From Escherichia coli (GTDB lineage: Bacteria > Pseudomonadota > Gammaproteobacteria > Enterobacterales > Enterobacteriaceae): 64,000 bases of DNA. Position 1 is the stretch's first letter. Each line of letters opens with the position of its first letter. Made by a program: the position numbers and the translations under genes. The DNA is taken from the NCBI RefSeq assembly GCF_051903065.1, contig NZ_CP178438.1; one strand, given 5' to 3'. The notes under the pieces were generated by a model. The model searched no databases. It was not told the DNA's origin and saw nothing but the letters and a program-made list of their open reading frames with translations. Shown piece by piece: positions 48,977 through 49,454 of the stretch.

Positions 48977-49240
48977 TTGCTTGTTTTCTGTCCTTTTTTT
49001 GCCCGTACTCTACGGAGGAAAGGTTGTGATAAAGAATTACTAGATATAATTTATCATGGTTGTGAGCTTGAAGATATTGAATCGCTGATCCCTGAAAGGC
49101 TCGAGACTGTCATACAAGAACTAATTCTCCAAACAACCGATTTGATCTATACAAAAAGAGATGATTATCCCTTAAGTGATGAAAGGGAAAGCATGGTTTC
49201 CTTTGAATTTAGCAATAATAAGGATTTGCAGAGTGTTTAA
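48977..49240 (+). CDS. Hypothetical acidic small protein, possibly a decayed gene (TTG start only)
   Basis: 87-aa open frame with no in-frame ATG or GTG near a ribosome-binding site. Confidence 0.25.
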   Translation: MLVFCPFFARTLRRKGCDKELLDIIYHGCELEDIESLIPERLETVIQELILQTTDLIYTKRDDYPLSDERESMVSFEFSNNKDLQSV

Positions 49241-49454
49241 AGATAAAACTGTCGCAGCAGAAATTAGTGCATTAATGCTTGAGATTGGTGCGAAATTAGA
49301 TAATTCCGTTTCACTTGTTCAGAAAAGTTGCGATGAATCTGAGCTTAATACTTATCGTTCCGCCGTCGGTGAAATTATGGGGCGCATGTTAATCGACATC
49401 ATGAACCCCATCTATAAACAGCACTCCGAACTCAAACCTGAACAACTTAGCTGA
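49233..49454 (+). CDS. Hypothetical small protein (about 73 aa), overlaps the stop of the preceding frame
   Basis: GTG at 49233 preceded by AAGGA at 8 nt; GTGTTTAA overlap with the upstream stop; track ORF starts at upstream ATG 49176. Confidence 0.3.
   Translation: MFKDKTVAAEISALMLEIGAKLDNSVSLVQKSCDESELNTYRSAVGEIMGRMLIDIMNPIYKQHSELKPEQLS

Follow-up and report, generated by a model that had tools for sequence, protein, structure and literature searches.

The stretch of E. coli DNA analysed here (64,000 nucleotides of contig NZ_CP178438.1, assembly GCF_051903065.1; hereafter the window) carries, in order, moaABCDE, ybhL, a variable stretch, ybhN, clsB and ybhP. The site between ybhL and ybhN is occupied by ybhM in most E. 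coli. The variable stretch that the window holds at this site is an islet with a GC content of 38.5%, compared to 49-52% in the flanking genes and 50% in the window as a whole. Bases 48130-49460 were 100% identical to E. coli strain ECNB21-M121. The features of the islet, with their positions in the window and the evidence for each, were as follows.

48131-49457, no strand: low-GC variable islet of 1.3 kb, from the end of ybhL (48130) to the stop codon of ybhN (49458-49460, minus strand).
48339-48431 (approximate), plus strand: decayed 3'-terminal remnant of ybhM (tblastn and blastn).
48467-48811, plus strand: very hydrophobic open reading frame of 114 aa, unannotated by PGAP, 51 nt upstream of the DUF3969 gene.
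48850-48857, plus strand: ribosome binding site of the DUF3969 gene (AAGAGAGG), 5 nt before the ATG at 48863 (read from the sequence).
48863-49240, plus strand: DUF3969-family gene of 125 codons, a pseudogene here (PGAP, Pfam PF13108, intact alleles).
48974-48976, plus strand: premature TAA stop at codon 38, which is GAA (Glu) in all intact alleles.
48977-49240, plus strand: 87-aa frame opened by TTG, the part of the DUF3969 gene that follows the stop and makes up its final two thirds (reading frames, structure model of the intact protein).
49220-49224, plus strand: AAGGA, a Shine-Dalgarno-like motif 8 nt before the GTG at 49233 (read from the sequence).
49233-49240, plus strand: start/stop overlap of 8 nt (GTGTTTAA), also present in both strains with an intact allele (read from the sequence).
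49233-49454, plus strand: intact 73-aa gene with a GTG start, WP_001602041.1 (annotation, dN/dS, structure model, family search).

Two frames reported in a preliminary description of the window were confirmed by reading the sequence: 87 codons from TTG 48977 to TAA 49238-49240, and 73 codons from GTG 49233 to 49454, overlapping by 8 nt and with AAGGA at 49220-49224. Both products were acidic, as had been stated, with pI values of 4.5 for the 87-aa and 5.0 for the 73-aa protein. The upstream frame had been credited with a TTG start only. The TTG does open 87 codons, but the true start is the ATG at 48863, which is served by a good ribosome binding site and from which this frame is cut off by the TAA at 48974-48976; the stop is in frame with the ATG and immediately precedes the TTG. 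NCBI annotation of an identical genome (PGAP) lists 48863-49240 as a pseudogene ('DUF3969 family protein', internal stop).

Strains FDAARGOS_943 and GDSC2227PM differed from the window at a single position over 1021 nt, 48974, which is G rather than T (GAA vs TAA). Both encode the intact 125-aa protein WP_001602040.1 and have an identical GTG/TAA overlap. Glu38 was invariant in the DUF3969 family alignment. As the nonsense allele was found in three complete genomes and the 87-aa fragment constitutes a database cluster (P0029) with 16 member sequences, it represents a genuine allele of recent origin rather than an error of sequencing; some annotation pipelines call the 87-aa frame a gene. The DUF3969 gene is dead in this strain through one recent GAA-to-TAA mutation.

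Membership of the upstream gene in PF13108 was established with strain 88-3493, whose intact 122-aa allele equals the window product over residues 1-107 except at codon 38 and matched the family with 67.5 bits (E 1.2e-18, gathering score 25). Cluster P0029 likewise has a precomputed PF13108 hit. The window itself holds no intact, translatable copy of this PF13108 gene, given the in-frame TAA and the PGAP pseudogene call. Comparisons between alleles gave dN/dS values of 0.2-0.4, and in the family alignment DUF3969 proteins ended at 112-125 aa in all lineages. The intact protein was modelled by AlphaFold2 as a helical bundle with a short strand capping each end (pLDDT 81.5), and the 87-aa frame lacks the first strand and first helix of this predicted fold. 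A fold search with the model returned no informative structural neighbour.

The downstream frame is annotated by NCBI as a separate hypothetical protein, WP_001602041.1, at 49233-49454, with its stop codon TGA at 49452-49454. Its dN/dS within Escherichia was 0.1-0.4, and a homologue on a metagenome contig was 61% identical in protein sequence, with synonymous sites saturated at that distance. AlphaFold2 predicted a two-helix hairpin (pLDDT 85.5). The protein matched nothing in Pfam, NCBIfam, PADLOC or PHROGs, and none of the 74 members aligned had a Pfam match. The family is nevertheless large: an exhaustive profile search recovered 798 cluster representatives at E<=0.001, of which 210 reached E<=1e-10, where representatives stand for clusters at 50% identity. 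Most members are free-standing proteins of 70-80 aa, and such members, with a start of their own, occur in hundreds of lineages and also in other phyla; the scan of the genome collection for this family used a narrower alignment than the one of 74 sequences. Some members are tandem two-domain proteins or fusions. Six of these (P0104, P0154, P0168, P0080, P0081 and P0103) were either tandem or fused to DUF3658, TPR repeats or DUF4288, and in this they resemble the 'polyimmunity proteins' described for other immunity families. N-terminally extended members were considered as hidden toxin fusions and rejected, as the extensions were mostly mis-called starts.

Sequence searches of the PDB with the DUF3969 family, the 73-aa family and the CdiA C-terminal domain described below gave no meaningful match, and fold searches for the two families returned generic helical bundles or nothing significant. 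Both genes were conserved under purifying selection, with Escherichia alleles diverging to approximately 78% nucleotide identity, and both frames are real genes rather than chance open reading frames. Of the checks that the preliminary description had called for, homology and structure prediction placed the upstream frame in a DUF3969 helical bundle and the downstream frame in an uncurated family of helical hairpins, each conserved in related genomes. Between the window and strain 88-3493 (L002), 13 of the 22 nucleotide differences fell in 49323-49450, the 3' half of the 73-aa gene, and 4 in the first 790 nt, which suggests a recombination mosaic or faster evolution in that half.

The arrangement of the junction varied among alleles. 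Strain 88-3493 has TAGAATG, with a 1-nt spacer and an ATG start, and in PT62 and E. albertii the two genes are separated by a spacer of 8-12 nt. DUF3969 proteins from alleles 68-82% identical to that of the window end in LQSV or LQNV. Judging by these C-termini, the 8-nt overlap appears to be common to a subclade, with an ATG start in the LQNV form, and the lineage of the window would have exchanged an ATG start for GTG. The E. albertii loci (L009-L011) have ATA in the 73-aa homologue where E. coli alleles have ATG, and the ATG upstream of it is out of frame. Translational coupling through the overlap, which had been proposed from the sequence of the window, is plausible for the intact allele but not universal, since other alleles have spacers of 1 or 8-12 nt.

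It had also been suggested that both frames could derive from a single frameshifted gene, in which case the shift would lie at 49233-49240. The frames do overlap, and each encodes a small, acidic, helical product. However, DUF3969 proteins end at 112-125 aa in every lineage, members of the 73-aa family stand alone and have a start codon of their own in hundreds of lineages, the genes are unlinked in other genomes, and no homologue among the hits inspected combined the two domains, in this order, as a single polypeptide. What disrupts the upstream gene is a nonsense codon, which lies 260 nt before the junction. The independent occurrence of the families, together with the position of this lesion, rules out a single frameshifted gene.

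A second suggestion was that the two frames form one functional module, either a toxin-antitoxin pair or a toxin with its immunity protein, coupled through GTGTTTAA. Their common strand, the 8-nt overlap and the AAGGA motif would suit such a module, as would their adjacency in 12 E. coli genomes and in E. albertii; two small adjoining genes with overlapping stop and start are also reminiscent of type II toxin-antitoxin systems. Several observations argue against it. Outside Escherichia, the DUF3969 and 73-aa families each occur without the other, and in E. coli 042 two genes intervene between them. Neither protein matched a toxin, antitoxin, defence or phage family, and the toxin-antitoxin proposal found no such family in Pfam, NCBIfam or PADLOC. 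Elsewhere, each gene follows a different toxin-like domain, as described below. Lastly, DUF3969 has been knocked out in three genomes with the 73-aa gene wholly unchanged, an upstream loss without the compensating change that would be expected of a type II pair. We consider a single module very improbable, and from their distribution the two genes are evidently not partners of each other. A 65-aa open reading frame that follows DUF3969 in locus L012 was considered as a possible relative of the 73-aa gene and rejected as unrelated.

We compared the ybhL-ybhN site among strains. Any part of the islet was present in 25 of 5426 complete E. coli genomes, and the whole arrangement in 12 of the 5426. 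Allelic islets at the site varied in gene content, with at least five arrangements across E. coli and E. albertii, among them one with an IS2 insertion and one with an apparent deletion scar. In E. coli 042, the DUF3969 and 73-aa genes flank a 152-aa hypothetical gene and, after it, a gene for SUKH-4 immunity (Pfam 27.2 bits, cutoff 25.5). The islet of EC42405 has DUF3969, a hypothetical gene and SUKH-4 without the 73-aa gene, and in AHM8C212RI an IS2 element sits between the DUF3969 and 73-aa genes. The E. albertii loci L009-L011 lack ybhN-clsB-ybhP; they hold an unclassified membrane protein of 237 aa and as many as three Bax1-I paralogues in tandem.

A trace of ybhM persists in the window. 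By tblastn, it was 39% identical to YbhM residues 204-234 (E 0.001), and by blastn 70-73% identical to the 3' end of ybhM in E. coli 042 and in O157:H7. This remnant indicates that ybhM was largely deleted or replaced when the islet was formed. In the O157:H7 strain TR01 (L055, positions 1201-1256), the ybhM 3' end is joined to the final ~53 nt of the 73-aa gene; the fused piece is 100% identical to window positions 49405-49460, and PGAP flags this ybhM as a pseudogene without its C-terminus. From its sequence, the fusion looks like a deletion scar left by an islet that was formerly present and then lost.

The 114-aa hydrophobic open reading frame was uninterrupted in all related alleles and matched no family of Pfam, NCBIfam, PADLOC or PHROGs. 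Its 10 nucleotide differences from L004 give 7 amino acid changes, so that the frame may or may not be coding; if it is, it would add a third small (membrane) gene to the islet. Descent from the 237-aa gene of E. albertii was rejected, as there was no similarity between the two. An Rfam search of 47900-49700 gave only a SorX match at 48119-48175 (plus strand) that spans the ybhL stop codon, with 22.4 bits against a gathering score of 46.6 (E 0.016); this sub-threshold match is probably a chance hit or a terminator-like hairpin. Promoter-like sites were not more common than in shuffled sequence, and a terminator scan found none. The stop codon of the 73-aa gene lies 3 nt from that of the convergent ybhN.

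The genes that precede DUF3969 homologues in other loci were then compared. A full-length CdiA of Proteus, with Fil_haemagg_2 repeats and a PT-VENN region, ends 5 nt before a DUF3969 gene, and an orphan cdiA-CT module precedes the DUF3969 gene in L053. Next to pptA-yddH, the E. coli Rhs element harbours an orphan C-terminal toxin module that has a stop codon in frame and overlaps the start of a DUF3969 paralogue through TAATG; the 1.4-kb segment with this module was at least 80% covered in 600 of the 5426 complete E. coli genomes. In L049 (7131-8042) and L042 (6378-7339), the orphan module and its DUF3969 gene have IS fragments on one side and a second RHS core gene on the other. Finally, in Xenorhabdus vietnamensis a 137-aa protein with a signal peptide precedes the DUF3969 gene. 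The CdiA, Rhs-orphan and Xenorhabdus proteins share a C-terminal domain of ~85 aa (55% and 52% identity, E 1e-51 and 2e-27) with the motif SIKDAPQYP...VSxHYFQSQSGRVFNVKVK, and a degenerate trace of it was seen upstream of DUF3969 in L012. The domain had no match in Pfam, NCBIfam or the PDB. One domain carried by several scaffolds and always followed by a DUF3969 gene is the hallmark of a polymorphic toxin with its immunity gene. The target of the window's DUF3969 protein is uncertain, because it is only ~43-47% identical to the toxin-adjacent copies.

The 73-aa family was found directly after a different domain, a cysteine-rich C-terminal segment of ~45 aa with the consensus CSxSSLPTxDxGFKFWNCVNxC..GC, in 10 independent loci. 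Six of these contexts were found from the family side: four with Rhs proteins (L019, L030, L032 and P0172, the last with the 73-aa family domain fused in frame to the Rhs protein) and two with non-Rhs proteins of Polyangium (L027, L028). For a reverse test, metagenome loci were fetched with the toxin motif alone, which yielded five new loci; one was left out, as its contig ends 53 nt past the toxin. A family member was located directly downstream in all four evaluable loci (E 1e-30 to 6e-36). The carriers comprised Rhs proteins (L019, L030, L032, L058, P0172), non-Rhs proteins (L027, L028, L061, L063) and, in L062, a 68-aa protein made up of a signal peptide and the cysteine-rich domain alone. 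The domain had no Pfam or NCBIfam match, and ~45 aa is unusually small for a toxin domain. Most carriers examined (L030, L032, L058, L027, P0172) had a hydrophobic, Gly/Ala-rich, transmembrane-like segment before the cysteine-rich domain, and several had a proline-rich linker ahead of it as well. The Rhs/cysteine-rich/73-aa unit of L019 and of the P0172 contig is followed by a gene (3613-4368 in L019) for an AAA_15/AAA_21 ATPase of 251-253 aa, which is absent from the Polyangium loci.

Other members of the 73-aa family occur as orphans, for example between rfbB and rfbA or among core genes of Burkholderia. These housekeeping contexts fit orphan immunity genes but are not specific to them. A 9.8-kb metagenome contig (L006) holds a long array of small same-strand genes, including a 73-aa homologue and a gene of the T6SS_Tdi1_C immunity family, separated by copies of a repeat with the translation ...PPNPSIERTxPGKPGxASHVKR. 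The contig has the appearance of a large polyimmunity array from a high-GC proteobacterium.

Homologues of both window genes thus occupy the position directly after a toxin domain that is typical of immunity genes, and for both families one downstream family accompanies one domain across different delivery scaffolds. The copies in the window do not occupy this position, and tblastn of the whole 64 kb with both toxin domains and the end of the Rhs core found no toxin. From gene position and co-distribution, we infer that both families function in immunity. The earlier suggestion of an immunity module is therefore retained in part: both genes appear to be of the immunity type, but for different toxins, both of which are absent here, and they are not partners of each other.

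Alternatively, the genes could encode accessory factors associated with toxins (chaperones, maturation factors or regulators), or could be unrelated to competition and lie in decaying acquired DNA. Many members of the 73-aa family are far from any toxin, the cysteine-rich domain is small and uncharacterised, and an ATPase gene (251 aa, AAA_15/21) follows the pair in two loci; in the islet itself, one gene is dead and ybhM is a remnant. Set against this, a gene directly downstream of a toxin C-terminal domain, with a stop/start overlap, is in the canonical immunity position, whereas secretion adaptors and chaperones of Rhs and T6SS effectors are usually encoded upstream. The pairing of one downstream family with each C-terminal domain on different scaffolds, the presence of a bona fide SUKH-4 immunity family member in allelic islets, and the purifying selection on both genes also speak for immunity. 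We regard the accessory or decay explanation as unlikely.

The reading that we favour, and consider probable, is a horizontally acquired orphan-immunity (polyimmunity) islet of two unrelated tandem genes, of which DUF3969 is dead, that replaced most of ybhM. The closest known counterparts are such polyimmunity loci and, for the proteins, CdiI and RhsI of contact-dependent inhibition and Rhs/T6SS effector systems, orphan cdiA-CT/cdiI modules included. Like CdiI and RhsI, the putative immunity proteins are small and apparently cytoplasmic, their homologues are encoded directly after a variable C-terminal toxin domain, often with a stop/start overlap, and each family travels with its toxin domain across CdiA, Rhs and stand-alone carriers. 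They differ from CdiI and RhsI in that the window genes have no upstream toxin and are orphans, with the immunity role suggested by the position of homologues, and in that neither toxin domain belongs to a curated family.

Heterogeneous polyimmunity loci, in which unrelated immunity genes lie in tandem on the same strand without a toxin, were described by Zhang et al. 2012 (PMC3482391), and clusters of acquired or orphan immunity genes are the subject of a further report (bioRxiv 10.1101/2025.05.03.651265). The islet resembles the loci of PMC3482391: it is tandem, same-strand, toxin-free and strain-variable, it bears signs of horizontal acquisition, and its allelic islets include a SUKH-family member alongside the two presumptive immunity families of the window. 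In contrast to those loci, it is very small (two genes, and up to four in E. coli 042) and rare in E. coli (25/5426), no adjacent recombinase was seen, and one of its genes is inactivated. DUF3969, DUF4288 and DUF3658 are all absent from the main text of Zhang et al. 2012. Our literature searches found no paper mentioning DUF3969, or ybhM together with ybhN.

If the islet acts in this way, each protein would bind and neutralise its cognate toxin domain when this is delivered by a rival cell; with no cognate toxin nearby, the genes would guard only against attack by other cells. Translation of the 73-aa gene, the product of which is predicted to be cytoplasmic, is probably coupled to that of DUF3969 by the 8-nt overlap in the intact allele. 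On the nonsense allele, ribosomes would halt at codon 38 of DUF3969, and re-initiation at the adjacent TTG would give a product without the first strand and helix. The 73-aa gene would then lose its upstream coupling and depend on its own AAGGA and GTG. In this strain, the 73-aa gene alone could still protect.

For the genome itself, the finding is routine, namely one pseudogene and one small accessory gene. Its wider interest is for annotation: it offers a testable function for DUF3969 and for the widespread, uncurated 73-aa family, and it points to two as yet unclassified toxin domains, of which one is unusually small. On balance, we lean towards the view that these represent two uncatalogued toxin-immunity pairs (DUF3969 with the ~85-aa domain, and the 73-aa hairpin with the ~45-aa cysteine-rich domain) and that ybhL-ybhN is an undescribed turnover hot spot, an Escherichia chromosomal site at which orphan immunity genes come and go. 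If this is confirmed, the genes could help to predict the resistance of E. coli to particular contact-dependent or type VI attacks.
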